Below, piece after piece: positions 9,230 to 31,858 of a DNA stretch of 42,338 nucleotides. How positions within the stretch are numbered: the stretch's first letter is position 1; each line of letters starts with the position of its first letter. The notes beneath the pieces were generated by a model. It made no database searches, was not told where the DNA came from, and saw only the letters and a program-made list of their open reading frames with translations. This DNA is from Dehalococcoidia bacterium (GTDB lineage: Bacteria; Chloroflexota; Dehalococcoidia; GIF9; AB-539-J10): assembly GCA_030615965.1 (NCBI GenBank), contig JAUWYE010000002.1, positions 1-42,338 on the forward strand, read 5' to 3'. The translations under genes and the position numbers were made by a program.

Positions 9230-12200
9230 CTACGGAGCCGTTTGCTCACTGGATGAGTCTTGACCCAGCTTCACCCTCCCAGGAAATCCAGCCTCGCTAA
9301 GGCCAATGAAGACCTCCACCAACTTAGGGTCAAACTGAATCCCGGCACCTTGCCTAATCTCTTTTACTACCTCCTCACGAGACAAGGCAGGACGGTAAGG
9401 ACGGGCAGAACTCATAGCTTCAAAGTTGTCAGCTATGGCGAGGATGCGAGCTTCTATGGGAATCTCTTCGCCTTTCAGCCCTTCAGGATAGCCACCACCA
9501 TCCCACCTCTCATGATGATGTAAAATGCTACTTACACAGGAAACTAGATGGGGTATGTTACCGACGATATTTGCCCCTACCCTGGGATGAGCCTTAAGCG
9601 CTTCCCAATTTTCTCTATTAAGCTTCCCCTTTTTGTTAAGCACACTATCGGGAATGCCAATTTTGCCAATGTCGTGAAGCAAAGCAGCAGTGCTCACCCT
9701 AGATACCTCATCAGGCGATAGCCCAATCGCTTCCGCCAAAGCCTCGGCATAAGTGCTAACTTTCCTGGAATGACCATAGGCATATGGATCTCTAGCCTCC
9801 ACTGCCGAGACTAAGGCATAAACACTACTCAAACCGTTATGCTTGGCATAAATCCCCTGAATCCCTCCGTAGTGCGGTGGCTCGGATAAAATCTTGGAAG
9901 AGAGGAAGATCCGATTACCTCCAGTTCGCTTAGCATGATAAAGCGCAGTATCAGCCACATCAACAAGTTCATCAGATACCACTCCATCTGTAGGATAGCT
10001 AGCCAAGCCAATGCTGCAAGTTACAGTAATTGCCTTCTTCTTCATCTCCCGGGCAATATGCTCTCGAACTCGCTCAGCTACGACATAGGCATCATCCATA
10101 GCTGCCTGGGGCAAAATGACAACAAATTCATCGCCGCCATAGCGAAAAGGCTGATCAGCATTCCTGATAGAGCTTTCGATAATTTTCCCTACATGGCTCA
10201 GAAAAATGTCCCCGGCGGGATGCCCATATACATCGTTATAGATCTTAAAGTTATCCAGGTCAAGCATGAATATAGAGAACACCTCGCCATAACGAGAATG
10301 CCGGGAAATCTCATCTCTGAGTCGCTCTTCAAAATGACGGCGATTAAATAGCCCGGTAAGCGCATCCATACGAGACTTTTGTTCCAATTGGGCATAAAGT
10401 TGCGCATTCTCAACTGGCGCAGCAATCTGCAAAGCCACCTTTTCCAGAAGTTGTATTTGCCTGCCACTGTAAGCGCTAGGTTTGCGGCTGGCCAAAATCA
10501 GGCTGCCAATAGTACGGTCTGTGACACTCAAGGGCAGGTAAACAATAGAACGAATCCCTCGCTTCATGTGACTCTCCGCGGTCCAGAATCTGTGGTATCG
10601 TTTCAGATCAGCTTCATATACGGCCTGCTTGTCCCGGTACACCAACTCCGTAGCCGTCCCTTCAAGCGGTATCCTCTCATCCGGCTGCCAAGCAGAACCT
10701 ATGGTGCTGGATAGAGCCAGAAAATGAAGCTCACTTCCATCAATTAAAGCAATTGATGCCCAATCAATATCCACCACTTTCTTTAATTCCTGGGCGAACC
10801 CCTCAAATATCATCTGAATGCTCATGCTGGAGGTTATGATGGCGGTTAAACGGTTAACCAGGGTTGTTTCTTCGTCTTGTTCCCTCAATTGCTCATGGGA
10901 ATACTCCTTTTCCATGCTCGCTGCCACCTGGGCGGTGATAAACTCCAGTAAATCAATATCCTCAACGGTGTAAAGCCTCCCATCTCGCCTCTCACTTATT
11001 GCCAGAACAGCCACAAGCTTCCCCTTGTTCATTAAGGGAACGAATGTCTTCACCCCTGCCAATTGGATTTCTTCTCTCTCCTCCTCCCATATAGATTGGA
11101 ATTCAGGAAAGATAGCGAGATTCCTTTCCGGCAATATGGTGCTTTCGTTCTCCAGCCAGGTCACAACAGGACTATCTGCCCTTAATGTCAACTCCCCCAT
11201 AGGATTATCCTCCACAGGAGGGTAGCTAAATCGGGCGCTAAAACCTCCGTTTCCAGCCTGGGGCAAAAGCAGACAAGCTCTCCGACAGTCAAGGGACTGA
11301 GCAAGTAGTGATATAAATTCGCTGCCCAACTGCTCCAGGGTGGGAACATCGTGTATCTTGGTGATAAACTGAGATAACTGCCTGCGATAGGAGTATCTTG
11401 CCCCGATAAAGGCTTCCTCCACCTTCTTTTGCCAGAGGTCGCGCACCTTGTGACTAAAAAACAGAATAGCGGGAATTCCTAGACCGATGGCTACCGCTAA
11501 AGAGGCAAAATTAAGCTCAAAGCCGACGAACCGGTGAGCAAACCTAAAAAATAGTAACACCATGCCAACACTACCGCCATAGAGGACTACGTATATCAGG
11601 GCTTGACGGAATACAACCCTGATATCCACCAGACGGTGGGTCACAACGGCGTAGGTTAAGACACAGGCCATGATAAGATTGCCAATATGGCTCACAGGAA
11701 ATTCGCCTCCACGGGGACCAACGGAGCTAAAAATGAACACCGTTAGGATAGCAATAGAAGCGAGTAAATAAACAATCTGATTACGCTCCGCAGGGTCAGG
11801 CGAAATCTTGTGCCTTCGCAGCAAAGAATATACATCCCTGGTGCCTACTGTGAAAAGAAAAAGTAAACATATAACAATAATCCAGGGGCCATAATCAACA
11901 TTGATACCGCTGGCAGTGACTTCAATGTTACGGGGGAGATAGCCCAATGCTGTCAGGACAATGGTGGCTATCAGGAAGATATAAGCCAATGGTATCTTGA
12001 TGCGTTCAGACTGGTAGAAAGAGCAGATAAAATAATGAAGTTGGACTAGCATCCAGATCACAAGGCAGATGCCAATTCTAATTAGGAGGAGCTTGTATGG
12101 CATAAGGAAATCGCTGCGGAAGAGAACGATGCTCAAACTCCACAATATGGTAGGAATCAAGAATAGGAAGAAAAGCCTATGCTTTCGTTGCCATGGCCGG

Positions 12201-12274
12201 TTAGATAGCAAAATAACAAATAAGGGGATATAAGCAATCGTAGCAATTAAGGGAACTAAAACATGGACATTCAT
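9230..12274 (-). CDS. Membrane sensor with 7TM N-terminus, GAF domains, a GGDEF diguanylate cyclase and an HD-GYP phosphodiesterase
   Basis: 1014 aa with about 7-8 N-terminal TM helices. The GGDEF site RYGGDEF is intact and is preceded by the I-site RNAD five residues upstream. The HD-GYP motifs are LLHDIGKIGIP and HHERWDGGGYPEGL. Confidence 0.9.
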   Translation of the reverse strand: MNVHVLVPLIATIAYIPLFVILLSNRPWQRKHRLFFLFLIPTILWSLSIVLFRSDFLMPYKLLLIRIGICLVIWMLVQLHYFICSFYQSERIKIPLAYIFLIATIVLTALGYLPRNIEVTASGINVDYGPWIIVICLLFLFTVGTRDVYSLLRRHKISPDPAERNQIVYLLASIAILTVFIFSSVGPRGGEFPVSHIGNLIMACVLTYAVVTHRLVDIRVVFRQALIYVVLYGGSVGMVLLFFRFAHRFVGFELNFASLAVAIGLGIPAILFFSHKVRDLWQKKVEEAFIGARYSYRRQLSQFITKIHDVPTLEQLGSEFISLLAQSLDCRRACLLLPQAGNGGFSARFSYPPVEDNPMGELTLRADSPVVTWLENESTILPERNLAIFPEFQSIWEEEREEIQLAGVKTFVPLMNKGKLVAVLAISERRDGRLYTVEDIDLLEFITAQVAASMEKEYSHEQLREQDEETTLVNRLTAIITSSMSIQMIFEGFAQELKKVVDIDWASIALIDGSELHFLALSSTIGSAWQPDERIPLEGTATELVYRDKQAVYEADLKRYHRFWTAESHMKRGIRSIVYLPLSVTDRTIGSLILASRKPSAYSGRQIQLLEKVALQIAAPVENAQLYAQLEQKSRMDALTGLFNRRHFEERLRDEISRHSRYGEVFSIFMLDLDNFKIYNDVYGHPAGDIFLSHVGKIIESSIRNADQPFRYGGDEFVVILPQAAMDDAYVVAERVREHIAREMKKKAITVTCSIGLASYPTDGVVSDELVDVADTALYHAKRTGGNRIFLSSKILSEPPHYGGIQGIYAKHNGLSSVYALVSAVEARDPYAYGHSRKVSTYAEALAEAIGLSPDEVSRVSTAALLHDIGKIGIPDSVLNKKGKLNRENWEALKAHPRVGANIVGNIPHLVSCVSSILHHHERWDGGGYPEGLKGEEIPIEARILAIADNFEAMSSARPYRPALSREEVVKEIRQGAGIQFDPKLVEVFIGLSEAGFPGRVKLGQDSSSEQTAP

Positions 12275-15481: not shown

Positions 15482-16186
15482 ATGGACAAGATCAAAGTGA
15501 TGATAATTGATGAGCAAGCATTTTTCAGAGCTGGGGTGCGTCAGACTCTGTCTCAACAATCTGACCTGGAGATATTGGAATGCGACCCAACTCAGAATGC
15601 ACTCGAGCTAATTGAAGCTAATCTCCCTGATGTTGCTTTACTTGGCTCTGACCTGACTAGCTTCAGCGGGATTGAGCTGGGTAGAAAAATTGCCCAACAC
15701 CACCCCAATACTAAAGTCATAGTGCTAAGCCCTGACCCTAATGATGAAGAGCTTTTTGAGGTTATTAAGACTGCAGCCGTAGCCTGCTTGAGTAAGAAAG
15801 CCACTGCCGACGAGCTGGCTAGCACTATAAGACGAGCCTACAGTGGTGAATACCCCATAAATGAAAGCTTGATGGCTAGACCCAGGGTTGCCACGCATAT
15901 ATTAAACCAATTTCGCGGTTTTACGAGAACTATGGAAGGCGTAGCTGCTCCTCTTACCAAAAGGGAAACGCAGATTCTAACCTACATTGCTGAGGGCAAC
16001 TCAAATAAAGAAATCGCCCATATTCTGGAAATCAGCGAGCAAACAATCAAGAATCATGTCAGCGCTATCCTTCGTAAGCTAAATGCTAATGATAGAGCCC
16101 ACGCTGTTACTCTCGCCCTGCGAGGCGGTTGGATTTCACCGGAAGCAAAACCACGAAGGGTATTAGAGGATTTTGATGGAATTTGA
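15482..16186 (+). CDS. NarL/LuxR-family response regulator (REC + LuxR HTH)
   Basis: The REC domain shows IIDEQ, LLGSDL, VIVLS and CLSKK. The C-terminus reads LTKRETQILTYIAEGNSNKEIAHILEISEQTIKNHVSAILRKL. Confidence 0.9.
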   Translation: MDKIKVMIIDEQAFFRAGVRQTLSQQSDLEILECDPTQNALELIEANLPDVALLGSDLTSFSGIELGRKIAQHHPNTKVIVLSPDPNDEELFEVIKTAAVACLSKKATADELASTIRRAYSGEYPINESLMARPRVATHILNQFRGFTRTMEGVAAPLTKRETQILTYIAEGNSNKEIAHILEISEQTIKNHVSAILRKLNANDRAHAVTLALRGGWISPEAKPRRVLEDFDGI

Positions 16187-16230
16187 ATGCCACTCGGGCG
16201 GGGACAAGCCCCACCCCTACGATATTGAAA

Positions 16231-16329: not shown

Positions 16330-16536
16330 CCCGACATTGTCGGGAGGAAATCGGCATTTAGGATTTAGAGTTTCCCTCTTCAGGGCTTGGAGTTTAGGAT
16401 TTGGAGCGAAGCGACTTTGGGATTTAGAATTTAGCCCCCGACAAGTCGGGGGCTAAAACCAACAACTCTTGTAGGGGAAGGACTTGTCCCCTCCCAATCC
16501 ACGGGAGACCACAAGGGACCCCCCCCAAAAGTTCTA

Positions 16537-16564
16537 TTGACAAACTAATCAGATATGCTAAATT
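16537..16564 (+). promoter_or_regulatory. Candidate promoter P5 (pilB-pilC unit)
   Basis: ctaTTGACA, a 16-nt spacer and TAAATT, about 75 nt upstream of the pilB start. Confidence 0.45.
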
Positions 16565-16637
16565 ATATTTATGTTCTGGGAGAGGGAGACTATTACGCCC
16601 TAGTTAACTTGGGTTAAGACATGGTTAAAACCTTGCC

Positions 16638-18989
16638 TTGAGCCAATTGGCGAATTACAGTTTACCCGAATTATTGAAAATGGCTGTGAAGGTGCGTCAG
16701 ATGGAAATCAGTCCGGAGCTAAAGACCCAGATTAAAGGGTATCTGGAGCAGCAGGGGCATGAAGTAACCGATGGAGCCAAGCTTCTCGGAAAGTCAGGGA
16801 TTGAGCATACCTTTGAAATGCTGGCTCAAAGAGACGATGGTTTTACTAGCTACACTATTGCTATCAACATTGCTGCTGGTGGTGATAAGGAGACAGAAAT
16901 GGGCACTATTTTCAACTTTGCTAATAAAGCCTACGATTGCGGCATCATTGACAGGCTTCTTATTGCCGTCCCTGAACTCAGTCAGGAAGCGAAACAGTTG
17001 GCCAGCAGGCAGCGAATAAAGGTTATCGATGGAGAACTAATTGAGACACTATTAACCTGGAAACCCACGCAATCAGTTAAGCCCAGGGAGCCGGTTAAGT
17101 TTGAGACAAAGGAGCAACTGCTCAAATCTTTAGTCGACCTGGGCTATATCGTAGAGGAGAAAGCCAAAGCCAAAAGCAAGTCGGGACTTGAATATACCTT
17201 TGATATCCTGGCTCATACTAACAACGGTCATGTTGCTCATATCTTGGGTATAGATTTCCTGAATGGGGAGAAAGAAGTGAGCCTGGAACAGGTAATCTTA
17301 TTTGATACTAAAGCCTACGACACTGAAACTACTGGCAAAGTCATTGTCGTATCCCCAGGGATTAGCTCTGAAGCAAGACAATTTGCCCAGCACCAGGGGA
17401 TAAGAGTTTTTGAGTTGAATCAAAAACCAGTTTCTGAACCTGTGACCGAAGAAATGCCTGGCCAGCCAAAAGAGAAGCCAGCCAAATCAGATAAGCCTCG
17501 AGCCAAGCTACTGAAGCAGCTGCCCCAGCCTGAGGCATTACAGTTGATTCCCGAGGTGATGGCCAGAAGGTATAATGCCATACCCCTGACTATATCTGGT
17601 AGGACAATGGAAGTGGCTATGGCAGACCCGACCGATATCTTTGCCCTGGAGGCTCTTGCCGCCCAGAGCCGAATGAGGATTAAGCCTGTGGCTGCCACTG
17701 CCCAGGAAATCAGGGACGCTATTGACTTCAATTATAAGTCCTTTGGCGAAATTGCAGAGCATATTTCTCGTATCTCCATCCCGGCTGAAGAAACTGATGA
17801 GAAGGTTGTCCTTCGTGCTGCTACTGATACTCCGCTGGTTCAGGCTCTCAACCTCATAATTGAAGAGGCAATCAAAGCCCGAGCATCTGACATTCATATT
17901 GAGCCACAAGAAGATAGAGTGCGAATACGCTACCGTATAGATGGCACTCTTCAAGATACGATGTCTCTACCTATAAGTGTACATCGAGCACTCATTTCAC
18001 GCATCAAAATCCTGGCTGAACTGAACATCGCTGACCATTTTCGTCCTCAAGATGGTCAATTCTCTACCAAGGCTAAAGGGCGAGAGATAGATGTCAGAGT
18101 TGCTACCGCTCCCACTGTCTCGGGGGAGAGATCAACCCTGCGACTTCTGGATAAGTCACTGGCTACTCTGGGGTTACCAGAACTCGGTCTACTCCCTGAT
18201 AGCCTGGCAAAGTACGAAGATATGCTCAAGATTCCCTATGGTATGATTCTGGTTAGCGGTCCCACCGGAGCTGGCAAAACTACCACTCTATATGCCGCAA
18301 TCAATTCTCTTGATACACAGGGGAGAAACATCATTACTATTGAAGACCCTGCCGAATACCGATTTAAGGATATTAACCAGATTCAGGTTAACCCACAGGC
18401 GGGCATTACCTTTGCCAGTGGCTTGAGGGCTATACTGCGTCTTGACCCCGATGTAATATTGGTCGGCGAGATACGTGATGCCGAGACAGCTAACATAGCT
18501 ATTCAGGCAGCCTTAACCGGACACCTGGTGCTGTCTTCTATCCACGCTAATGATGTTGCCGGTGTGCTCACCCGTCTAATTGACCTGAAAGTAGAGCCTT
18601 TCCTGGTAGCCTCAGCAGTTATTGGTGTTGTTGCCCAGCGGATGGTGCGCTGCGTCTGCCCTGATTGTAGTCGCCCTATTGAGACCCCCTTGGTCGAGCA
18701 GATAGCTTATGAAAAGGAAATGGGGGAGAAGCAGACCAAGTTCCTCTACGGTACCGGCTGTAAGTCCTGCGCCTATACCGGTTACCTGGGGCGTACGGGA
18801 ATCTTTGAGATTCTAACTACGAGCGACTCCACAAGAACGATGGTCTGTAATCGAGACAACAGTAGTGTTATCCGAGAGCAGGCACTTAAAGACGGTATGA
18901 TATCTATGATAAACGATGGTATGCGCAAGGTAAAGGCAGGTATTACCACTCCCTCTGAGGTGCTGCGTAATGCCTACATTACAACTTAG
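16638..18989 (+). CDS. pilB: Type IV pilus extension ATPase PilB/GspE with a ~290-aa N-terminal extension carrying two Mrr-like domains
   Basis: The T2SSE_N domain reads LIPEVMARRYNAIPL...VAMADPTDIFALEAL. Walker A is GPTGAGKTTTL, Walker B is DPDVILVGEIRD, the His box is SSIHAND, and the tetra-Cys motif is CPDC...CKSC. The TTG start at 16638 is uncertain; an alternative ATG lies at 16680. Confidence 0.9.
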   Translation: MSQLANYSLPELLKMAVKVRQMEISPELKTQIKGYLEQQGHEVTDGAKLLGKSGIEHTFEMLAQRDDGFTSYTIAINIAAGGDKETEMGTIFNFANKAYDCGIIDRLLIAVPELSQEAKQLASRQRIKVIDGELIETLLTWKPTQSVKPREPVKFETKEQLLKSLVDLGYIVEEKAKAKSKSGLEYTFDILAHTNNGHVAHILGIDFLNGEKEVSLEQVILFDTKAYDTETTGKVIVVSPGISSEARQFAQHQGIRVFELNQKPVSEPVTEEMPGQPKEKPAKSDKPRAKLLKQLPQPEALQLIPEVMARRYNAIPLTISGRTMEVAMADPTDIFALEALAAQSRMRIKPVAATAQEIRDAIDFNYKSFGEIAEHISRISIPAEETDEKVVLRAATDTPLVQALNLIIEEAIKARASDIHIEPQEDRVRIRYRIDGTLQDTMSLPISVHRALISRIKILAELNIADHFRPQDGQFSTKAKGREIDVRVATAPTVSGERSTLRLLDKSLATLGLPELGLLPDSLAKYEDMLKIPYGMILVSGPTGAGKTTTLYAAINSLDTQGRNIITIEDPAEYRFKDINQIQVNPQAGITFASGLRAILRLDPDVILVGEIRDAETANIAIQAALTGHLVLSSIHANDVAGVLTRLIDLKVEPFLVASAVIGVVAQRMVRCVCPDCSRPIETPLVEQIAYEKEMGEKQTKFLYGTGCKSCAYTGYLGRTGIFEILTTSDSTRTMVCNRDNSSVIREQALKDGMISMINDGMRKVKAGITTPSEVLRNAYITT

Positions 18990-19007: not shown

Positions 19008-20219
19008 ATGGATTTCGTTTATACGGCTTATACTGAAGATAAAAAATTAGTTAAGGGCAAGGTTTCCTCTATCAGCGAAGAGGCGGCAACCGAGCTGTTG
19101 AGCTATGGCGGCTATCGGGTCGTTAGCCTTAAGAAAGTCGTTCCCTTGTTTGATAAGGAAAAACTACTAGCCCGCTTTTCTCAGATAAAGCCGTCAGAAA
19201 TAATCATGCTTTCCCGCCAGCTAGCGTTACTCCTGGAATCCGGCACCGATATTGTTACTTCTTTAGACTTGTTACAAGTCCAGACAGATAATCAAACCTT
19301 GAGGAAAATACTTGGTGAGGTATCCTCAGATATTCGCGGTGGTAGCTCACTGTCAAAGGCTCTAAGCAAGTACCCTCGGGCTTTTTCTACAATGTACTCC
19401 CAGGCAATAGCTGCTGGTGAGCAAGGTGGTAACATGGAGGTGGTGCTGAGGCAAATGGCCGATTATCTGGAGAGGGGAGCCACCACTGAGAAGAAGATAA
19501 AAGGTGCCTTGACCTATCCCTTTATGGTGGTTCTTGTAGCTGTTGTTGTGGTAGTGATACTGATCACCTTTGTTTTCCCCAGCTTTATCGGCTTCTATGC
19601 TGAAATTGGAGCTGAGTTGCCTCTGGCCACCAGAATGCTTATCGGCATTACCAATTGGTTTGGCCATTATGGGCTTTATCTTCTGATTGTGATTTTAGCT
19701 GCTGTTGGTGCCACCTATGCCTATATCAAGACCCCAGCCGGGAAATACCGTTGGCACAAAATGATGCTTCGTTTGCCTGTAATCGGGCGTATTATCCAAC
19801 TTAGTGAGCTTTCTCGGTGTTGCCGCACTATGTCATTGTTAATCAGAGTCGGCTTACCCCTACCAGAAGTCATGGCGGCAACCATCCGCGGTACTACCAA
19901 TAAGGCTATAGCGGAGAGTCTGACCGAGGTTCAGCAAGCGTTAATCAGAGGTGAAGGCTTGGCCCAACCTATGGCCAAGAGGGACCTCTTCTTGCCTCTG
20001 ATGACGCAGATGGTGAGCGTTGGTGAGGAAACCGGTAATCTCGAGAACACACTAGTTACTGTAGCCGAAAGCTTTGAGACCGAGACTAATGATAAGACCA
20101 CTGCGGCTGTGGCGCTAATTCAGCCAGTGATAACGGTGTTTCTCGGTTTAGGGGTTGGTTTTGTTGTCTTAGCCATGTTGTCAGCTATGTATTCTGTCTA
20201 TGGTCAGCTAAATATCTAG
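19008..20219 (+). CDS. pilC: Type IV pilus platform protein PilC/GspF
   Basis: 403 aa with two T2SSF repeats (SRQLALLLESG and SRCCRTMSLLIRVG) and 3 TM helices. A GGAGG sequence lies 8 nt upstream of the ATG. Confidence 0.9.
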   Translation: MDFVYTAYTEDKKLVKGKVSSISEEAATELLSYGGYRVVSLKKVVPLFDKEKLLARFSQIKPSEIIMLSRQLALLLESGTDIVTSLDLLQVQTDNQTLRKILGEVSSDIRGGSSLSKALSKYPRAFSTMYSQAIAAGEQGGNMEVVLRQMADYLERGATTEKKIKGALTYPFMVVLVAVVVVVILITFVFPSFIGFYAEIGAELPLATRMLIGITNWFGHYGLYLLIVILAAVGATYAYIKTPAGKYRWHKMMLRLPVIGRIIQLSELSRCCRTMSLLIRVGLPLPEVMAATIRGTTNKAIAESLTEVQQALIRGEGLAQPMAKRDLFLPLMTQMVSVGEETGNLENTLVTVAESFETETNDKTTAAVALIQPVITVFLGLGVGFVVLAMLSAMYSVYGQLNI

Positions 20220-20275
20220 GTGAGGGTTATCAGGGGGTCATATATGGCAATTTGCAGGAATGGTGGCACAAAAGT

Positions 20276-20451
20276 CCCCCTGTCATTGCGAGTCCCGATT
20301 TATCGGGACGAAGCAATCTCGTGCGCCCTTCTGTCATTGCGAGGAGCCCCGATGAATCGGGACGACGAGGCAATCTCAGGGGCAAGGGAATCGCCACGCA
20401 CTCCCCACCTGTCATTGCGAGTCCCGATTTATCGGGACGAAGCAATCTCGG
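20276..20451 (+). repeat. Three tandemly spaced copies of the family G repeat
   Basis: Units lie at 20276-20321, 20331-20380 (variant) and 20406-20451. The unit is ccctGTCATTGCGAGtcccgatttatcgggaCGAAGCAATCTCg, with an internal TCCCGA-TTTA-TCGGGA hairpin. Confidence 0.9.
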
Positions 20452-20487
20452 TGGGGCAGGGGGATTGCCGTGAGCATTCTTAGGAAA

Positions 20488-20943
20488 ATGAAAAAACTAA
20501 GACTGAATAGCCAGGCAAGGAAAGCCTTTCAAGGCAGCTCAAGGGGCTTCACTCTGGTTGAGATAGTGATAGCTATAGCTCTTCTGGGGGTAATTGCTGT
20601 CGCCATTTTAAGCTCCCTATCCTATGCCTCCACGATTCTCATCATTGCCGATAGGCGGGCCACTGCCGAAAGCCTGGCCCGAAGCCAGATGGAATATGTT
20701 AAGAACGAACCGTACATTGACTATTCCGAGCTTGGCCACGGCGATTATGACTTGATAACGATTCTTGACGGTGAGGAGTATGAGCTTGAGCCTGTTATTG
20801 TTGAGCAGCTTGAGGTCGGACTTCAGAAGATAACGGTGACTGTTAGCTATGAGATTCTCAGGTATAACATTAGCACCCATGGCTCTAAAGCAGTACAAGA
20901 ACAATTTACCCTGGATGGCTATAAGAGAGAGCCGGTGACATAG
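20488..20943 (+). CDS. Minor pilin or pseudopilin with a prepilin-type N-terminal cleavage/methylation signal
   Basis: The class III signal is QGSSRG|FTLVEIVIAIALLGVIAV, with Glu at +5. I placed the start at the ATG at 20488 (MKKLRL); the ORF track starts at GTG 20470. Confidence 0.8.
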   Translation: MKKLRLNSQARKAFQGSSRGFTLVEIVIAIALLGVIAVAILSSLSYASTILIIADRRATAESLARSQMEYVKNEPYIDYSELGHGDYDLITILDGEEYELEPVIVEQLEVGLQKITVTVSYEILRYNISTHGSKAVQEQFTLDGYKREPVT

Positions 20944-21031
20944 AGAGGTATAGAAAATTCCGAAATCGCAAATTACAAATGGGAGCTTGGAATTTGGAAT
21001 TTCTATAGAGTCGCGATTGAATCTTAAACAA

Positions 21032-21562
21032 ATGAAGATGAAAAAGCTAAAGAAGGACCAGAGGGGCATTACCCTGATTGAGCTGGTAATAGCCTTCGCT
21101 ATTACTGGCATCATCACCGCCGCCATTACCATGGCCGTTTTTCAGGTGTTTACCATGAACACCCGCACCTCTAACCGCATGGCCGCTGTGAGCCAGGTGC
21201 AACACGCTGGCAAACTGGTCAGCGAAGATATCCTGAAGGCTCAGCCTGCTAAAATAGATGATACCCCGCCAGATGGAAAATTTCTCGTTTTAGGTTGGAC
21301 TGCTCAGAATGGTGCGGAGCATGAGGTTATTTATACTTTAGAGGCTATGCCGCCGTCTGGCTTATTGAAGATACTCTGGCGAGAGCACCGTATTAACTCA
21401 GTCCCTAGTCCCACTACAAAGGTGGCTGAATATATTGACTCTGACCCTGACCAGACTAGGTATGATTGGGATGGTGAGGTGCTCACTTTCAAGGTGACCG
21501 CCAACGTGGGCGGACAAAGTGAGACCAGGGAATATGAAGTTATGCCCAGACCGGGCTCATAA
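21032..21562 (+). CDS. Minor pilin with a prepilin-type N-terminal signal
   Basis: The signal is KKDQRG|ITLIELVIAFAITGIITAA, with Glu at +5. I placed the start at the ATG at 21032 (MKMKKL). Confidence 0.8.
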   Translation: MKMKKLKKDQRGITLIELVIAFAITGIITAAITMAVFQVFTMNTRTSNRMAAVSQVQHAGKLVSEDILKAQPAKIDDTPPDGKFLVLGWTAQNGAEHEVIYTLEAMPPSGLLKILWREHRINSVPSPTTKVAEYIDSDPDQTRYDWDGEVLTFKVTANVGGQSETREYEVMPRPGS

Positions 21563-21776
21563 TAGAAATCCAAAAATCAAAGGCCAAAAATCAAAATGAC
21601 AAACCAAAACGCAAAACTTAAAATGCTTATACCTCTGCTTGCATCTTTGCTTTTTACATTTTAATTTATCGAGGCGTGAAGGAATCCTTTCCTTCACAAT
21701 TCAAATCCCAAATCCTAAATGCCGATTTCCTCCCGACAATGTCGGGACAAAGTCGGGACAATATCAAATGACAAAA

Positions 21777-21824
21777 AGAACTAGTTTTGGCATTTAAGCA
21801 TTTGGATTTTGACATTTGGATTTG
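21777..21824 (+). repeat. Repeat module A, copy 3
   Basis: The sequence aagaactagttttggcatttaagcatttggattttgacatttggatttg is identical by eye to the first 48 nt of 26617-26684. Confidence 0.85.
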
Positions 21825-21986
21825 TTTGGGGCAATGACATCCCCCCTGTCATTGCGAGGAGCGAGATTCCTCGCTTGTGCTTCGGAACAGGCTCCGCAAT
21901 CTCGGTGTGCTTCCTTACTTACACCCAGAACAGCTTCCTTTGACAGTGTTCGCCGGCCTATATATAATTCCTGTGGAGGCATAATT

Positions 21987-22250
21987 ATGTTGACGGAGTA
22001 CGTTGAGCGGGCGATGAGCAAAGCTGTGTATGAGAAGCTCGAAGATGGTACCTATTGTGGCAAGATTCCTGAATGCCATGGGACAATTGCTTTTGGTGAA
22101 ACGCTTTATCAGTGCCAAAGTGAGTTGAGATCGGTTCTCGAAGGCTGGCTGCTGGTCAAGATAAGGCATGGTGACCACCTGCCTGTTATAGATGGACTCG
22201 ACCTAAACAGGGGCATACCAATACTTGAGGAAACTGTAGCCCATGGCTAA
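21987..22250 (+). CDS. hicB: HicB-family antitoxin (module 1)
   Basis: MLTEYVERAMSKAVYEKLEDGTYCGKIPECHGTIAFGETLYQCQSELRSVLEGWL is a paralogue of 28622..28882. GGAGG lies 7 nt upstream of the ATG at 21987. The longer ORF from 21816 runs through repeats. Confidence 0.8.
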   Translation: MLTEYVERAMSKAVYEKLEDGTYCGKIPECHGTIAFGETLYQCQSELRSVLEGWLLVKIRHGDHLPVIDGLDLNRGIPILEETVAHG

Positions 22251-22476
22251 ATGGGCACCGTGCAAACGCCAGGTTTTTATAAGGAAATTAGTTAGATTGG
22301 GTTTTAGCCCACCTGAGCCAGGTGGGCGTCATTTTTATATGCGCTATGGGACACATACCTTGGCTATTCCCAACAATGCTGAATACTCTGTGCCTCAGCT
22401 CAAGACACTTCTCAAGGAAGTGGCACAGATTATGGGAAGGGGGATTTCCTTGCAGGAGTGGCAAGGTCTTTCCTGA
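22243..22476 (+). CDS. hicA: HicA-family mRNA interferase toxin (module 1)
   Basis: 77 aa, reading KRQVFIRKLVRLGFSPPEPGGRHFYMRYG. This is the YcfA/HicA pattern with a conserved His. It overlaps hicB by 8 nt. Confidence 0.8.
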   Translation: MAKWAPCKRQVFIRKLVRLGFSPPEPGGRHFYMRYGTHTLAIPNNAEYSVPQLKTLLKEVAQIMGRGISLQEWQGLS

Positions 22477-22626
22477 GAAATTTGGAGATTGGGTTTTGGG
22501 ATTTAGAATTTAGCCAATGGGCTTGCCGCGCCTCGCTCAGAATGACACATCCCCCCTGTCATTGCGAGTCCCGATTTATCGGGACGAAGCAATCTCGTGG
22601 AGGACAATGATAGTACAGATGGACTA

Positions 22627-22654
22627 TTGACGCCAAAGATGATTACGCTATACT
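22627..22654 (+). promoter_or_regulatory. Candidate promoter P2 (PilX-like gene)
   Basis: TTGACG, a 16-nt spacer and TATACT. A second extended -10 element, TGGTATAAT, lies at 22672-22680. Confidence 0.5.
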
Positions 22655-22693
22655 AATAGTATACTGCTACCTGGTATAATGGGGGGTGAGGTG

Positions 22694-23821
22694 ATGAAAA
22701 TTGCCATGAAGAGATTAATAAGAGATGAAAAAGGGCAGGCGCTGGTCCTGGTCCTGATTCTGCTTCTTGTCGGCGGGCTCATCATCGCTCCCTTGCTGGC
22801 TTATATGGGCACCGGACTTATCGCCGGTAAGGTCTATGAGAGGAGGACGGCTGAGCTTTATGCCGCCGATGCCGGGGTGGAGGACGCGGTATGGAAGATA
22901 CAGCATCAAGTAGCTGGAGTGGAGGGATTGGATAATTGTTACCCGGACTGGTCTTACAATATGACCGACGTTAATGACAAAAGCGTGGATGTTACCATAA
23001 CATGGGTGGATGGTCGAACTTATCGCGTCGTATCAACAGCTACTGGCGATGGCAGCGGGACCCAAATAGATGCTTATGTTGCCAGTGTGTATGGTAATTA
23101 TTCCGGCATAACGAATCAAGTTATTACCAGCCAGGGTGACATTATCCTCCAACCTGGTGTGGATGTCACCCCTGAAGAGGGAGAGAATGCCGCGGTAGAG
23201 TATTATGTTGGTCCCTGGCCGACAGCGGATGAGCTTGCTGCTTGGTACTGGCAGGATGTCGAAGGCGGGACGCACTACGATTCAGACACTGAAATAGACC
23301 TTAACGGCGTTGACAAGGATTTAGGGCCGCTATATGTAGAGGGCGAATTGGATATCGTGAACTCAAGTAATACTCCCGCTACTTTAACCCTTACTGGAAC
23401 TATTTACATTACCGGTGACACACTAATCGGCAAGACTGGCAAAGACTTTACCCTTGAATTAAATGGTCATACTATCTTTGTTGAGAGCGATTCTGCTGAC
23501 CCCCAAAAAGCACTTTGGATAGGGGGGCAGTGTAGCATCGTCGGTCCCGGCGCTATTATGGCTGTAGGGGACATCTATTTTGAACCAAACATAGAAGCAG
23601 GTATGACCGACCCCATATTTATAATGTCAGTTTCGGGCGAAACCCTTTTAAATCCCGGAGGTGATTTCTACGGTTCTGTAGCTGGTAGTGTCCAGGTGCA
23701 ATTACAACCCGGCATAAGCCTGAATTATCCAGAAGGGGGTTTTGGGGACCTTAACTTCCCCGGTTGTAGTGGAACTCAGCTAATTTACAGCATTGCTTCG
23801 TGGGATATTAACCAGCAATAG
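22694..23821 (+). CDS. PilX-N-like pilus-associated protein with a large, probably beta-rich C-terminal domain
   Basis: The N-terminus EKGQALVLVLILLLVGGLIIAPLL...YAADAGVEDAVWKI resembles PilX_N. It has no Glu at +5. The choice of start (22679, 22694 or 22706) is uncertain. Confidence 0.55.
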   Translation: MKIAMKRLIRDEKGQALVLVLILLLVGGLIIAPLLAYMGTGLIAGKVYERRTAELYAADAGVEDAVWKIQHQVAGVEGLDNCYPDWSYNMTDVNDKSVDVTITWVDGRTYRVVSTATGDGSGTQIDAYVASVYGNYSGITNQVITSQGDIILQPGVDVTPEEGENAAVEYYVGPWPTADELAAWYWQDVEGGTHYDSDTEIDLNGVDKDLGPLYVEGELDIVNSSNTPATLTLTGTIYITGDTLIGKTGKDFTLELNGHTIFVESDSADPQKALWIGGQCSIVGPGAIMAVGDIYFEPNIEAGMTDPIFIMSVSGETLLNPGGDFYGSVAGSVQVQLQPGISLNYPEGGFGDLNFPGCSGTQLIYSIASWDINQQ

Positions 23822-24087
23822 GATGGGTTAATCAGATTTGAATTATAAAGGAGGCGGCATTTATATGTCGCCCTACGGGGTTTATTAGGCGAATGCGCTA
23901 TTTAATAATGTGGTTGCCCAATTTATTTAGCAACCTCCTTTGTCATTGCGAGGCACGACAGTGCCGAAGCAATCTCGGTGATGGAGGCAGGGGATTGCCG
24001 CGCACCTTTCAGGGGCTCGCAATGACAAAAAGCGTTGTGCTCCGATTTCATCGGAGCAACTACTTATGCTGGAAAGGAAGATAGGAA

Positions 24088-24303
24088 ATGAAGCAAATTA
24101 CTGTTACCGCCGAATTGATAAAAGAGGAAGAAGGGGGCTATACCGTCTACTGCCCAGAATTAGATATTTATACTCAGGGAGACGATGTAAAAGACGCTAT
24201 CAAAAACCTTAAAGAGGCTGCCGAACTTCACATAGAAGAGTTGGGAATCGAGAACATCAAGCTGAAAAAAATACAGCGGAGACAGATAGAAATGGTAATT
24301 TGA
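24088..24303 (+). CDS. hicB: HicB-like (UPF0150) antitoxin (module 2)
   Basis: 71 aa, reading TAELIKEEEGGYTVYCPELDIYTQGDDVKDAIKNLKEAAELHIEE. Confidence 0.7.
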   Translation: MKQITVTAELIKEEEGGYTVYCPELDIYTQGDDVKDAIKNLKEAAELHIEELGIENIKLKKIQRRQIEMVI

Positions 24304-24304
24304 G

Positions 24305-24541
24305 ATGTCCAGATTGCCAAGGATAACAGGAAAGGAATTGGCGAAGGCGTTGCAAAAGGAGGGCTTTGAAATTACACGGCAAAGGGGAAGCCACGTGCAG
24401 ATGACAAAGTATATTGACGGCGAGAAATTAACCTTTCCTGTTCCCGTCCATGCTGGCAAAATCGTTAAACAAGGGACTTTAAAGGGAATACTGAGGAAGG
24501 CAAACATTTCTGTGGAGCGACTGGAGAGACTCCTTAGATGA
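24305..24541 (+). CDS. hicA: HicA-family toxin (module 2)
   Basis: 78 aa, reading ITGKELAKALQKEGFEITRQRGSHVQM. It starts 1 nt after the hicB stop. Confidence 0.8.
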   Translation: MSRLPRITGKELAKALQKEGFEITRQRGSHVQMTKYIDGEKLTFPVPVHAGKIVKQGTLKGILRKANISVERLERLLR

Positions 24542-24622
24542 TTGAAAAAGACAAACATTTCCGGGGGACTAGTGGACAGATTTATTAGACAATGGTATAT
24601 TACCGAGGAAGCGGAGTAGTTT

Positions 24623-25177
24623 ATGAAGCTGAGTAAGAAGGTTTGGCTGATTATAGGAATCGCCATTCTCGCTATCGTCCTCGCCGTCCTGTTCTCGAAT
24701 TACTCCGGGCTGGCTGGAGAGCGGAAGCAATTAGAGAACGACCTCTCGGATGCTCAAGATCTCTTGCCTAGGCTCACTGTTGAAAAGGGAGACCTGAAAA
24801 ACCAACTCGCTCAAGCTCAGTCATTGCTTGACAGTAGCCGGGCAAAATTCCCTGAATCAGTGACGAGCATTGAATACGGCGAGGACTTATTTGAGATTGC
24901 TGACGATTGTACTGTGGAGATAACCAGGCTCACTGCATCAATGCCGACTGACAAAGAAGCAGGAGGTTCTACCTATTCTGTTTCTTCATTTGCGGTAAGT
25001 GTCAGGGGTGACGTGGATGACATACTGGATTTTGTAGACGCTTTGAGGGCCGGTGTGGATTTTCAACTACCGTGGAGTGCTGAGCTGACGGCAGTAAAAA
25101 TCAATTATGCCGGTGAAGAAGATACCGCAGGAACAGCTACCATCAACCTGGATATCTATGCCTATAAAGGTGAATAA
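24623..25177 (+). CDS. pilO: PilO-like pilus alignment protein (TM anchor + coiled coil + globular domain)
   Basis: 184 aa. The N-terminal TM segment is VWLIIGIAILAIVLAVLF, followed by the coiled coil ERKQLENDLSDAQDLL...NQLAQAQSLL. The call rests on architecture and genomic context. Confidence 0.5.
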   Translation: MKLSKKVWLIIGIAILAIVLAVLFSNYSGLAGERKQLENDLSDAQDLLPRLTVEKGDLKNQLAQAQSLLDSSRAKFPESVTSIEYGEDLFEIADDCTVEITRLTASMPTDKEAGGSTYSVSSFAVSVRGDVDDILDFVDALRAGVDFQLPWSAELTAVKINYAGEEDTAGTATINLDIYAYKGE

Positions 25178-25179
25178 AC

Positions 25180-26607
25180 ATGGCGAAAAGAGTTACCACC
25201 TTATTTATTAGAGATACCGCTATTAACCTGCTGGTAATGAAGGGCAGACAGGTGGAAAAGTGGGCTATCTTGCCACTGGAGCCAGGTCTGGTCAGCCAGG
25301 GGCTCATCGTTGATGAAGCGCGGGTAGCCGACGAGGTGAAACAGCTATTCAAAAGGGAAAAGGTAAGCACAGCGAAGGTTATCATCGCTTTAAGCGGGCA
25401 CGATTCCCTGTACCGTATCATAACCCTGCCTGAGCTGCCTGAAGCTATACTTCCTGAGGCGGTAAGGCGTGAGGCAAAGAGAACGATACCAACACCTTTA
25501 GAAGAGGCCTATTTTTCGTACCAGCGCCTTCCCTCCGAAAGGGGAGAAGGTCGCGTTTTTCTGGCCAGTTTTCCCCGCAATCTGACTGATTCCTTAGTCA
25601 GAACGCTGCGTCAGGCCGGTATTAAGCCGTATATTATAGACTTAGCTCCTCTAGCCCTGTGCCGAATCCCCAATGAGCCCAGAGCAATCATTATAAATGC
25701 CGGGTTAGACCACCTGGATGTCATGGTTATAGCAGACAGGCTCCCCCAGGTCATCCGCAGGTTATCCCTGCCCGGCGAGGCTGAATCTTTAGAAGAAAAG
25801 CTGCCCCTCATCACTGAAGAGTTCAACAGAACTGTTGCCTTCTATAATTCCAGCCATATGGAACAGCCTCTAGATTCAACTGTGCCTGTGTTTGCCTGCG
25901 GCGACCTGGCAGAAGCACCGGAGACCTGGCAGTCAGCGCTTGGCCAGTCAGGTTATTCGGTGTCACCGTTGCCATCGCCTGTGGAACCCCCCGAGGGCTT
26001 CAACCCGAACGACTTCATGGTCAATATGGGGCTGGCTCTCAAGGAACTACTGCCAGAACAGAAAGAGGCTAACTTTTCACTAGTGAATTTCAATGTCCTG
26101 CCCGAGGCCTATTTACCCGAGCGTTTCTCTATATCACGAGTCCTTGTCCCTATCGGTAGTGTCGTTGGTATCGGCCTCATTATCTTTGGCGTAATTTTTA
26201 TCCAGGCTAATCGCGCCCAAATCGAGACATTGCGTTCCCAGGTGACAGCAACTGAGAGCAGCGTCACCCGATTGCAAAGAGAAACAACAATATTGCGCAC
26301 GCAGATTGGGCCGATAAAAGCCACCGCCGATGAGCTTAATGCCAGAGTTGTCACTATGGAACGGGGGCGTGCACAGATTGCCATGGATTTGAGTGAAATT
26401 GATAGACATGCCGGAGAGAAGATAACCTTGAGTAATGTTAGTCATGCAGGCGACTCGGTAACAGTGAACGCGGTGGCTTCAGATGAAGATGCCGTTTTCG
26501 GGTACGCCGACGATTTGAGAAAGAGCGATAGATTCTCGGATGTTTGGATTTCCTCTATCGCCGGGAGCGGCAAAACATTTAGTTTTGTGCTCTCCTTAAC
26601 AAAATAA
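25180..26607 (+). CDS. pilM: PilM (actin-like ATPase fold) fused to a PilN-like TM/coiled-coil segment
   Basis: The N-terminal ~300 aa resemble PilM (IALSGHDSLYRIITLPE and IIDLAPLALCRI). They are followed by the TM helix VLVPIGSVVGIGLIIFGVIFI and a coiled coil. Confidence 0.7.
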   Translation: MAKRVTTLFIRDTAINLLVMKGRQVEKWAILPLEPGLVSQGLIVDEARVADEVKQLFKREKVSTAKVIIALSGHDSLYRIITLPELPEAILPEAVRREAKRTIPTPLEEAYFSYQRLPSERGEGRVFLASFPRNLTDSLVRTLRQAGIKPYIIDLAPLALCRIPNEPRAIIINAGLDHLDVMVIADRLPQVIRRLSLPGEAESLEEKLPLITEEFNRTVAFYNSSHMEQPLDSTVPVFACGDLAEAPETWQSALGQSGYSVSPLPSPVEPPEGFNPNDFMVNMGLALKELLPEQKEANFSLVNFNVLPEAYLPERFSISRVLVPIGSVVGIGLIIFGVIFIQANRAQIETLRSQVTATESSVTRLQRETTILRTQIGPIKATADELNARVVTMERGRAQIAMDLSEIDRHAGEKITLSNVSHAGDSVTVNAVASDEDAVFGYADDLRKSDRFSDVWISSIAGSGKTFSFVLSLTK

Positions 26608-26616
26608 AGTTATTTA

Positions 26617-26684
26617 AAGAACTAGTTTTGGCATTTAAGCATTTGGATTTTGACATTTGGATTTGGGCAAAGGGATTTTGGGGG
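26617..26684 (+). repeat. Repeat module A, copy 1 (upstream of pilT)
   Basis: The sequence aagaactagttttggcatttaagcatttggattttgacatttggatttgggcaaagggattttggggg has its reverse complement at 29892-29976. The 29.9-kb copy carries an 18-nt insertion. Confidence 0.9.
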
Positions 26685-26757
26685 AATAGAACTATCTTCT
26701 AGAACATAATCTCTTCCCAAGCTATTCCCAGCCCTGTCATACTATATTCAGGATAAT
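26685..26757 (+). repeat. 73-nt module B, copy 2, inserted between modules A and C
   Basis: See 14425-14497. Module B is absent from the otherwise matching A-C junction at about 29890. Confidence 0.9.
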
Positions 26758-26832
26758 AAGGGGAGGGTGGGTTAATACTATTTTCCTATTACTAATGGGC
26801 GATTGACAGTAAGGATGAAGGAAGCTTACACT
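26758..26832 (+). promoter_or_regulatory. Module C (50 nt) ending in a -35 element; candidate pilT promoter P4
   Basis: The sequence aaggggagggtgggttaatactattttcctattactaatgggcgaTTGAC matches the reverse complement of 29841-29890 with 1 mismatch. The -35 TTGACA lies at 26803-26808. The -10 is weak (TACACT, 18-nt spacer). Confidence 0.5.
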
Positions 26833-26917
26833 ATATTATAAATATACTCAAATATACTATAAAGCAGGGGTAAAATTGTGTTGGGATTTATGTAGTTGAC
26901 TATAGAAGGGAAAAAAT

Positions 26918-27985
26918 ATGGATGTTTTTTCATTGCTTCGGACAGCTAACTCAAAGCGGGCTAGCGATTTGCATCTGGTTGTTGGCAGCCCAGCAATATT
27001 CCGTATCGACGGCACTCTGGAATCATCAAACGGTGTAGCTCCACTAAGCGCTGAGGATATAAACGAAGCTTTTCTCCAGCTAACCACGCCTGAGGAGAGA
27101 GAAACCTTCCACCGCCATCTGGAGCTTGACTTTGGCTATACATTACCGGATGTCGGTCGTCTGCGATGCAATGCCGCTCAGCAGCGCGGGTCTATCAGCC
27201 TTGCCGTGCGCCTGCTGCTGCCAAAAATCCCCACCCTAGACGAACTGGAACTGCCCCAGATATGTAAGGAGCTTGCTTTGAAGCCGAGAGGACTGGTAGT
27301 GATTACTGGACCTACCGGCAGCGGTAAAAGCACCACCCTGGCAGCTATGATTCAGTACTTGAATACTCATGAGACTCGCCATGTGGTTACCATTGAAGAC
27401 CCCATAGAATATGTTTACACCAGCCTTAAATGCGCTGTGACCCAGCGCCAGTTGGGCACTGATACCCTATCATTTACTAATGCTCTAAAGCATATCTTGA
27501 GGCAGGACCCGGATGTGATTCTGATCGGGGAGATGAGAGATACCGACACTGCGGATGCCGTCCTTACCATAGCTGAGACCGGGCACTTCATATTAACTAC
27601 CGGTCATGCCCCCAGCGCTACTCAGGCAATGGAGCGAATAATTGATTTGTTCCCACCTCATCAGCGCCACCTAGCTCAGACACGGCTGGCTTCTCTACTT
27701 GTTGCTGTGTTGTGTCAGGTGCTTGTGCCCCGGACTGACGGCTCAGGAAGGATAGCCGCCGTGGAAATCATGCTCGGCAATCCGGCAGCGAAGAACCTCA
27801 TTCGTGAAGGCAAACTCTACCAGCTACCCAATGTAATCCGTACCCACCGGGAACTAGGCATGATTTCGCTTGACGAAGCCCTGGTCAGTCTCTATCTTAA
27901 GGGAACCATCAGTGGCGCAACCGTGCTTGCTTCCTGCAACGACCGCCAGGAAGTGGAAAAGCTCATCGGCAAGGTAAAATTATAG
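26918..27985 (+). CDS. pilT: Type IV pilus retraction ATPase PilT
   Basis: 355 aa. Walker A is GPTGSGKSTTL and Walker B is DPDVILIGEMRD. AAKNLIREGKLYQL matches the PilT AIRNLIRE signature. Confidence 0.9.
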   Translation: MDVFSLLRTANSKRASDLHLVVGSPAIFRIDGTLESSNGVAPLSAEDINEAFLQLTTPEERETFHRHLELDFGYTLPDVGRLRCNAAQQRGSISLAVRLLLPKIPTLDELELPQICKELALKPRGLVVITGPTGSGKSTTLAAMIQYLNTHETRHVVTIEDPIEYVYTSLKCAVTQRQLGTDTLSFTNALKHILRQDPDVILIGEMRDTDTADAVLTIAETGHFILTTGHAPSATQAMERIIDLFPPHQRHLAQTRLASLLVAVLCQVLVPRTDGSGRIAAVEIMLGNPAAKNLIREGKLYQLPNVIRTHRELGMISLDEALVSLYLKGTISGATVLASCNDRQEVEKLIGKVKL

Positions 27986-31837: not shown

Positions 31838-31858
31838 CTGATAATTGCTAACTCAAGA

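Follow-up and report, generated by a model that had tools for sequence, protein, structure and literature searches.

The DNA considered here is a 42,338-nt stretch from a Dehalococcoidia bacterium (GenBank assembly GCA_030615965.1, contig JAUWYE010000002.1, positions 1 to 42,338), referred to below as the window. Its gene for the type IV pilus (T4P) extension ATPase PilB (16638..18989, + strand) encodes a 783-aa protein in which two apparently inactive domains of restriction-endonuclease fold are joined in tandem to the N-terminus of an ordinary motor. We named this inactive restriction-endonuclease fold domain iRE. The same pair makes up the C-terminus of a 463-aa protein with a TackOD1 zinc-ribbon domain, which is encoded within the same pilus gene cluster (30057..31448, − strand), and PilB apparently captured its pair from a TackOD1 protein of this kind. 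The fusion to PilB points to an undescribed way of pilus-motor regulation.

Two iRE domains precede the ATPase core of PilB

The first iRE repeat spans aa 24–141 of PilB (16707..17060, + strand) and is supported by an AlphaFold2 (AF2) model, Foldseek, and a Pfam Mrr_cat match over aa 29–138 (E 1e-3). The second spans aa 156–262 (17103..17423, + strand) and is supported by BLASTP against the first and by AF2. An earlier sequence-only reading of the same DNA had placed the repeats at aa 27–140 and 153–262 and had noted that the pair recurs in the 463-aa protein; both points held, with the limits now set by profile and model. When aa 21–145 of PilB were compared with aa 146–270 using BLASTP, they were 33% identical over 105 aa (E 3.7e-19). 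The two copies of the 463-aa protein were 53% identical to each other (E 5e-37) and 37–43% identical to the PilB copies (E 1e-24 to 3e-32). Taken over all pairs, the four window copies of about 110 aa shared 33–53% identity (E 3.7e-19 to 4.6e-37) and 24 invariant alignment columns, and by sequence comparison they are homologous.

The AF2 model of PilB aa 1–295, built on a 52-sequence alignment, had a pLDDT of 83.9 and a pTM of 0.74. Each repeat was predicted to fold as alpha-beta-beta-beta-alpha-beta-alpha-beta, with helices (H) and strands (E) at H26–38, E42–50, E56–66, E71–80, H84–100, E105–111, H116–124, and E127–130 in repeat 1 and at H158–167, E171–179, E185–195, E200–209, H216–228, E233–239, H244–252, and E255–259 in repeat 2. 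The structure search that the sequence-only reading had proposed for the PilB N-terminus returned PD-(D/E)xK nucleases as all of the top PDB matches in Foldseek, the best being AF1548 (PDB 1y88, E 1.5e-5), with Cdn1, VC1899, Can2, Card1, NucS/EndoMS, MspJI, FokI, and the R2 endonuclease among the others. In the model of the 463-aa protein (pLDDT 87.7, pTM 0.71), both C-terminal domains gave the same PD-(D/E)xK matches (1y88, E 6e-7), and the TackOD1 part had no informative Foldseek match. The PD-(D/E)xK core fold was thus found by AF2 and Foldseek in both PilB repeats and in both copies of the 463-aa protein, and the packing of one repeat against the other was confident in both models (pTM 0.74 and 0.71).

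Sequence profiles agreed with this assignment to varying degrees. The Mrr_cat model (PF04471) scored 19.6 bits on PilB (E 1e-3), just under its gathering threshold of 21 bits, and matched the 463-aa protein twice above that threshold (E 9.5e-13, 48.7 bits). When the copies were scanned singly, two of the four window copies matched Mrr_cat, with a best E value of 5.4e-8. The model NA-iREase1 (PF22722) matched the four window copies only weakly (best E 0.032); it matched some homologues, such as a REC-TackOD1 protein with three iRE copies (P0070, E 4.9e-8) and several proteins with precomputed PF22722 matches. A sequence search of PilB aa 1–295 against the PDB gave nothing meaningful (best E 1). 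The resemblance to Mrr_cat, which the sequence-only reading had drawn from the order of sequence elements, was borne out by the Pfam scores, the order of elements in AF2, and the Foldseek matches.

The remainder of PilB is that of a secretion ATPase. The T2SSE core occupies aa 395–777 (17820..18968, + strand; PF00437, E 5.8e-126), with the Walker A motif GPTGAGKT at aa 541 and the CxxC motifs CPDC at aa 674 and CKSC at aa 708. It is preceded by a T2SSE_N domain at aa 287–367 (17496..17738, + strand; PF05157, current Pfam title “MshEN”, E 1e-17), and this combination of PF00437 with Walker A and PF05157 places the protein among the T2SSE secretion ATPases. The NCBIfam equivalogs for GspE and PilB (TIGR02533, E 1e-158; TIGR02538, E 1e-149) covered only aa 294/304–779 and stayed under their cut-offs. 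For TIGR02538, the type IV-A PilB model, the score was 496.6 bits against a cut-off of 675.65 over aa 294–779, and the N-terminus of PilB does not fit this model. Judged from these profiles, the ATPase core is an ordinary, fully conventional PilB/GspE.

The Pfam start of T2SSE_N at aa 287 leaves about 286 residues ahead of it, close to the earlier estimate of 290. The Pro/Lys-rich linker of the earlier reading was also found: aa 263–300 contain 8 Pro and 7 Lys in 38 residues, and the segment at 17424..17495 (+ strand) is predicted to be disordered from its composition and from a pLDDT below 50 over aa 264–295. That reading had further described the repeats as standing in place of known PilB sensor domains; the pair is indeed present, but it precedes the usual T2SSE_N domain and replaces nothing.

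The cyclic di-GMP (c-di-GMP) motif of MshEN domains is a tandem of RLGxx(L/V/I)(L/V/I)xxG(L/V/I)(L/V/I)xxxxLxxxLxxQ. In a regular-expression search, not even its 10-residue core RLGxx(L/V/I)(L/V/I)xxG had a match anywhere in PilB, and the identity of the N-terminus as an MshEN c-di-GMP sensor was therefore rejected.

The partner protein

The 463-aa protein was assigned from Pfam, AF2, and Foldseek and probably represents the donor family of the PilB module. Its TackOD1 domain, a helical head followed by Cys-rich zinc ribbons, spans aa 25–203 (30840..31376, − strand) and matched PF18551 with E 1.6e-40 and 139.1 bits against a cut-off of 32 bits. The aligned TackOD1 domains share invariant Cys columns, so that score and CxxC/HxxC zinc-ribbon cysteines both identify the protein as a TackOD1 member. 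TackOD1 has been described as a zinc-ribbon output domain of response regulators whose zinc ribbons resemble the PriA insert (PMC5847659). The two iRE copies follow at aa 212–331 (30456..30815, − strand) and aa 342–456 (30081..30425, − strand), both supported by BLASTP, profile, and AF2.

Loss of the catalytic motif and conservation of other residues

The iRE domains of 50 PilB tandems, 26 TackOD1 tandems, and 28 single-copy TackOD1-iRE proteins were aligned to the profile of the four window copies, giving five classes: PilB repeats 1 and 2, TackOD1 tandem repeats 1 and 2, and single copies. The beta-2 Asp of the PD-(D/E)xK motif (profile column 37) was kept in more than 94% of the copies. The (D/E) and K positions on beta-3 correspond to columns 54 and 56, which held C/G and A/T in PilB repeat 1, D and L in PilB repeat 2, G and E/K in TackOD1 repeat 1, G and E in TackOD1 repeat 2, and G/D and A/L in the single copies. 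In the window copies themselves, beta-3 reads N-I-A and D-F-L in PilB repeats 1 and 2, and G-V-E and G-I-E in the 463-aa protein. The full D...(D/E)xK motif was kept in none of the five classes, which cover 130 copies. The segments INI and IDF of the two PilB repeats, from which the sequence-only reading had taken the domain for a probably non-catalytic module, lie on beta-3 with no Lys two residues on, and the wider set supports that view. Since the beta-3 (D/E)xK is absent from every class and only the beta-2 Asp is retained, iRE is catalytically dead by canonical criteria.

Other positions were nearly invariant across all classes, namely S30, G31, H34, K73, Y75, D76, E93, and Q101 in profile columns, with the conserved segments GxSGxEH..D and KAYD. 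From this pattern the domain is judged to be under strong constraint at polar residues specific to the family. All classes were acidic, with a mean net charge per domain of −1.7 to −4.7. In a scan against the PADLOC defence models, the best match had E 0.0017 and was a spurious zinc-ribbon one; consequently, an anti-phage defence-system reading of iRE was dropped.

Distribution of iRE and its domain partners

A search with the N-terminal 295 aa of PilB against a set of 5.8 billion proteins returned 68 proteins, all from metagenomes or from metagenome-assembled genomes (MAGs) of Dehalococcoidia. Each was built either as iREx2-T2SSE_N-T2SSE or as a TackOD1-iREx2 protein of about 453 aa. A single-repeat profile gave 849 matches among 1.84 billion cluster representatives, 174 of them at E ≤ 1e-10. 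Among the best 150 of the 849, the multi-domain proteins with TackOD1 were TackOD1-iRE (~320 aa), TackOD1-iREx2, and REC-...-TackOD1-iRE proteins of 600–980 aa, with one to three iRE copies in the TackOD1-iRE proteins. The remaining multi-domain architectures among these 150 were REC-GerE-iRE, REC-x-iRE, and iREx2-PilB, with no others. In GTDB species representatives, 122 loci matched, nearly all in Dehalococcoidia or Dehalococcoidales MAGs. From this distribution, iRE is best described as a narrow subfamily found chiefly at the C-terminal end of zinc-ribbon proteins with TackOD1. The T4P connection proposed in the sequence-only reading also stood, as within Dehalococcoidia the locus scans found iRE tightly tied to T4P genes.

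One PilB of 1103 aa carries four iRE copies through a duplication of its own pair (L077:9950-13258), from which the pair is judged to be the unit of duplication. This protein was considered as a Rosetta-stone case and rejected: the extra pair resembles PilB's own and is not a captured TackOD1 pair, and it therefore adds no evidence for a hetero-interaction. Two loci with separate iREx2 and PilB reading frames (L001, L002) were likewise rejected as true split genes, as they look like frameshifts or assembly artefacts.

Synteny, fusion, and origin of the PilB module

In a first scan of 79 loci, the iRE-bearing gene was PilB in 52 and TackOD1-iREx2 in 26. These loci shared a conserved gene order: GH3-like, orf106, HTH_45, REC-GerE, iREx2-PilB, PilC, minor pilins, orf380, orf184, PilMN, PilT, pilin, and TackOD1-iREx2. 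Most of the 26 TackOD1 loci kept TackOD1-iREx2 beside the pilin gene, and pilin or other pilus genes were present in the fetched stretch of 19 of them.

A second scan, with the 453-aa TackOD1-iREx2 class as query, resolved three configurations. In configuration A (21 Dehalococcoidia loci), TackOD1-iREx2 precedes, on the same strand and at a distance of 4–28 nt, a PilB of about 525 aa that has no iRE, and this PilB is followed by the same PilC...PilT cluster; the complete chromosome OY970123.1 is an example. In configuration B (5 loci), TackOD1-iREx2 lies 0.6–3.4 kb upstream of an iREx2-PilB, and in configuration C (8 loci) the arrangement is that of the window, with TackOD1-iREx2 beside the pilin gene. 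Both iREx2-PilB and TackOD1-iREx2 were found in at least 18 assemblies, which adds to the link between the two proteins but falls short of a proper co-occurrence test.

PilB repeat 2 was closer to repeat 2 of the configuration-A and -B TackOD1 proteins (mean identity 0.446 and 0.458) than to their repeat 1 (0.362 and 0.382). PilB repeat 1 followed the same trend weakly (0.396 vs. 0.374). These repeat-wise identities fit a joint acquisition of both iRE repeats from a TackOD1-iREx2 gene, and in configuration A the 3′ end of the putative donor abuts the 5′ end of pilB.

Reach of the pilus link in Archaea and other bacteria

In Nitrososphaeria, a single-copy TackOD1-iRE gene adjoins a gene for a T2SSE/PilB3-type ATPase in six of seven loci, and one locus (L082) has the order T2SSE-T2SSF-T2SSF-TackOD1-iRE. 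The C-terminal domain of about 110 aa in the archaeal TackOD1 proteins matched the iRE profile nearly over its full length (E 1e-7 to 1e-9), and Pfam reported TackOD1 alone on the Nitrososphaeria proteins. Archaeal TackOD1/arCOG06883-type proteins of about 320 aa were seen at L188-L192 and L194 (e.g., L188:9995-10960) and at L082:5176-6153. The adjacency agrees with the published occurrence of arCOG06883/TackOD1 proteins in thaumarchaeal T4P loci (PMC4858521, PMC5847659). The supplementary tables of these studies list archaeal TackOD1 proteins of 303–336 aa without further annotation, and neither paper mentions a nuclease-like C-terminal domain on TackOD1. In Alphaproteobacteria, TackOD1 occurred without iRE.

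A possible coupling of the pilus motor to TackOD1 signaling

The explanation that we favor, to which we give an even chance, is that the iRE pair of PilB serves as a non-enzymatic adaptor or regulatory module coupling the extension motor to the TackOD1 protein. The TackOD1-iREx2 gene is a conserved companion of pilB in Dehalococcoidia, and its iRE pair appears to have been copied as a unit onto the PilB N-terminus in a fusion of the Rosetta-stone type. The iRE domains would then tie the motor to TackOD1 signaling through iRE–iRE or iRE–PilB contacts, or through a response to the same input, so that the activity of the motor would be kept in step with TackOD1 output, which may be pilin expression. 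That a single module of this conserved and closely linked neighbor is fused to PilB suggests that this module is the part working with PilB, and both physical coupling and a regulatory role are what we infer from it. Among the hypotheses of the sequence-only reading, synteny and fusion favor that of a shared partner or hetero-oligomerisation. A bolder version, possible but doubtful in our view, is that iRE is the docking element of a hitherto unrecognized pilus-motor control system common to Archaea and Bacteria, in which TackOD1 proteins, frequently the output part of a response regulator, would bind and gate the T4P ATPase through their C-terminal dead-nuclease domain; if so, the iREx2-PilB fusion would be the Rosetta stone that reveals the contact between TackOD1 and the ATPase.

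Several observations weigh against such a coupling. The co-occurrence counts are lower bounds from pattern-limited scans of incomplete MAGs. A rough neighbor-joining tree, restricted to window-type sequences, placed the two PilB repeats in one group and the two TackOD1 repeats in another; this grouping by protein could reflect independent duplications or a homogenisation of repeats. The two repeats of the window-type TackOD1 proteins are 55% identical and may therefore have been homogenised. If the invariant KAYD patch forms the interface of an intramolecular pseudo-dimer, it would be occupied there and unavailable to a second protein.

The neighborhoods outside Dehalococcoidia and Nitrososphaeria point the same way. 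In WOR-3, single-copy TackOD1-iRE genes stand among housekeeping genes (LspA, aminotransferase, Na/Pi transporter), with no pilus genes within 8 kb in the loci L083-L093; in these loci (e.g., L083:8001-8951) the gene is followed by those for signal peptidase II and a class-V aminotransferase. In other Chloroflexota, one REC-TackOD1-iRE gene adjoins a gene for a ParA/MinD-like ATPase (L125:10001-12346), and another adjoins genes for a GAF histidine kinase, an OmpR-type regulator, and a GT2 protein (L126:10001-11863), the last being a chitin/cellulose-synthase-like glycosyltransferase. The neighbors in these two loci suggest targets other than pili. Because of such non-pilus neighborhoods, TackOD1-iRE is better regarded, from its genomic contexts, as a general signaling output module than as a pilus-specific part, with a pilus tie that is strong in Dehalococcoidia and Nitrososphaeria and not universal.

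Instead of coupling the two proteins, the pseudo-dimer could be a shared sensor that binds a small molecule, for example a nucleotide second messenger, with PilB and TackOD1 reading the signal independently and without touching each other. The tandem occupies the N-terminal place that the c-di-GMP-binding MshEN domain takes in other PilB/MshE proteins, and this PilB has no c-di-GMP motif of its own. The invariant polar cluster (S30, G31, H34, D37, K73, Y75, D76, E93, and Q101) is pocket-like, a pseudo-dimer would suit a symmetric ligand, and a GGDEF/HD-GYP protein is encoded nearby (9230..12274). However, the structural matches Can2, Card1, and Cdn1 use the nuclease domain as effector and a CARF domain as sensor, and we are aware of no PD-(D/E)xK domain with a role in sensing small molecules. 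In the REC-TackOD1-iRE proteins the REC domain already provides the input, which places iRE on the output side. We therefore consider a ligand sensor rather unlikely.

An unlikely explanation is that iRE merely drives self-association of its carrier, into PilB hexamers or clusters and TackOD1 dimers, with no cross-talk between the two. PD-(D/E)xK domains commonly dimerise, single-copy TackOD1-iRE proteins could homodimerise, and the tandems would then be intramolecular pseudo-dimers, as in the models (pTM 0.71–0.74). The duplication of the pair as a pair in the four-copy PilB and the presence of iRE in REC-GerE-iRE regulators are consistent with such a role. Self-association would, however, leave unexplained why one narrow subfamily is common to PilB and its conserved neighbor, and why TackOD1-iREx2 stands 4–28 nt from an iRE-less PilB in 21 loci.

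Inactive nuclease folds often keep nucleic-acid binding, as in the Rpb5 jaw, which was among the Foldseek matches, and iRE might accordingly bind DNA or RNA, making PilB a participant in DNA uptake and TackOD1-iREx2 a regulator of the adjoining pilin gene. The helical head and the PriA-insert-like zinc ribbons of TackOD1 (PMC5847659) would suit this role. We judge it very unlikely, since the acidic charge of every iRE class speaks against binding to DNA, conservation is lacking at the canonical DNA-cleft positions, and neither ComEA nor ComEC was identified among the window ORFs scanned. Activity as a nuclease with migrated catalytic residues (e.g., D37 with K73 and D76) seems extremely improbable: although the beta-2 Asp is widely kept, the Lys and Asp of helix alpha-2 are invariant, and certain restriction enzymes are known in which a catalytic residue has moved to a helix, the order of AF2 elements puts K73 and D76 at the C-terminal end of alpha-2, far from beta-3 and the canonical site, beta-3 combines the second acidic residue with a Lys in no class, no defence model matched, and a nuclease on a pilus motor has no obvious rationale.

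Relation to known systems

With Mrr_cat (PF04471) and AF1548 (1y88), iRE has in common the alpha-beta-beta-beta-alpha-beta core, the order of elements, and the GxSG...D on beta-1/beta-2. It differs from them in lacking the beta-3 (D/E)xK, in the new invariants KAYD on alpha-2, H34, E93, and Q101, and in being a net acidic tandem pseudo-dimer that resides in signaling and motor proteins instead of restriction systems. NA-iREase1 (PF22722, “NACHT-associated inactive restriction endonuclease 1”) is likewise an inactive Mrr-like accessory module, but the window copies match it weakly, as given above, and the partners of iRE are TackOD1, REC, and PilB rather than NACHT/STAND NTPases. Active/inactive heterodimers of nuclease folds such as XPF-ERCC1 and MUS81-EME1 provide a precedent for dead PD-(D/E)xK domains as pairing modules and for pseudo-dimers; iRE, however, has no sequence relationship to them, no active partner, and no DNA-repair context.

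PilB/MshE proteins with MshEN or an extra GSPII domain also carry a regulatory module ahead of the N1/T2SSE_N part of the T2SSE hexameric ATPase. In contrast to these, the iRE fold is different, there is no c-di-GMP motif, and the module is common to a separately encoded partner. The TackOD1/arCOG06883 proteins of archaeal T4P loci (PMC4858521, PMC5847659) have the same TackOD1 domain as the 463-aa partner, and their link to a T4P ATPase gene holds in both Nitrososphaeria and Dehalococcoidia. Beyond the published description, a C-terminal nuclease fold is found here in members from both Bacteria and Archaea, and Dehalococcoidia additionally have it fused to PilB.

In the literature, searched with incomplete journal coverage, we found neither Mrr_cat together with PilB nor Dehalococcoidia together with PilB and type IV pili, no description of an iRE domain on TackOD1 proteins, and nothing relevant on NA-iREase1 or on inactive restriction endonucleases with NACHT; TackOD1 by name turned up in a single paper. 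Within that coverage, the earlier view that this N-terminal architecture of PilB is uncharacterised met no counterexample. Judged from its sequence, PilB here carries a new, putatively regulatory module of known fold, for which the proposed mechanism is plausible.

Regulation of PilB is known mainly through c-di-GMP (MshEN), partners of the PilZ/FimX type, and Pil-Chp response regulators. A module at the N-terminus with another fold would provide a further, separate route, and one that PilB has in common with a conserved neighbor, itself an output domain in two-component systems. TackOD1/arCOG06883, the role of which has so far been called obscure, would also gain a first functional handle, as the fusion hints that it acts together with the ATPase of the pilus. 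An unannotated inactive nuclease-fold domain is present in many TackOD1 proteins, including those of Archaea, and a testable prediction is offered for Dehalococcoidia, a widespread, uncultured lineage.

Gene neighborhood in the window

The pilus cluster of the window begins with a REC-GerE regulator, PilB, PilC, two minor pilins, a HicB-like gene, and two unassigned ORFs, and continues with a PilM-PilN fusion, PilT, a second HicB-like gene, the major pilin, TackOD1-iREx2, and a tRNA cluster. The REC-GerE (NarL/LuxR-type) response regulator was assigned with Pfam and lies directly upstream of pilB (15482..16186, + strand), as it does in most window-type loci. PilC, the two minor pilins, the HicB-like gene, orf380, orf184, the PilM-PilN fusion, and PilT occupy 19008..27985 (+ strand; Pfam), in an order kept in related loci. 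The major pilin gene (29288..29680, − strand; N_methyl motif, E 1.6e-9) is directly downstream of TackOD1-iREx2, a pairing also seen in most window-type loci.

The 450 nt between the regulator gene and pilB (16187-16637) are dense in repeats, with four TTTAGGATTTAGAGTTT-like units and inverted partners, a perfect 13-nt hairpin at 16430-16457, and a 25-nt inverted repeat with arms 250 nt apart. A promoter-like TTGACA-N17-TAAATT lies at about 16537-16565, upstream of pilB. Between pilC and the first minor pilin gene, 20275-20450 contains three palindromic elements of about 46 nt (TGTCATTGCGAG-TCCCGATTTATCGGGA-CGAAGCAATCTCG), and an 87-aa “ORF” at 20220-20483 is probably a translation of these repeats. 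The two HicB-like (UPF0150) antitoxin-family genes inside the cluster lie at 21816-22250 (+) and 28622-28882 (−), and none of the ORFs examined is an obvious HicA partner.

Beside the pilus cluster, a trio encoding a GH3-like acyl-amido synthetase, a 106-aa ORF, and an HTH_45 winged-helix protein (12696-15263, −) was observed; in dozens of Dehalococcoidia loci it adjoins either the PilB end or the TackOD1 end. The GAF-GAF-GGDEF-HD-GYP protein of c-di-GMP turnover (1014 aa, 9230-12274, −) is encoded about 4 kb upstream of the cluster. Directly beyond TackOD1-iREx2 lie six tRNA genes (Leu, Cys, Gly, Leu, Trp, and Arg; 31755-32334, −), followed by a tRNA-Ala gene at 33828-33902 (−). Next to the tRNA cluster, at 32848-33458 (+), an 88-aa ORF overlaps the start of a PemK/MazF-family toxin gene (33114-33458), and the two are likely a type II toxin–antitoxin pair.

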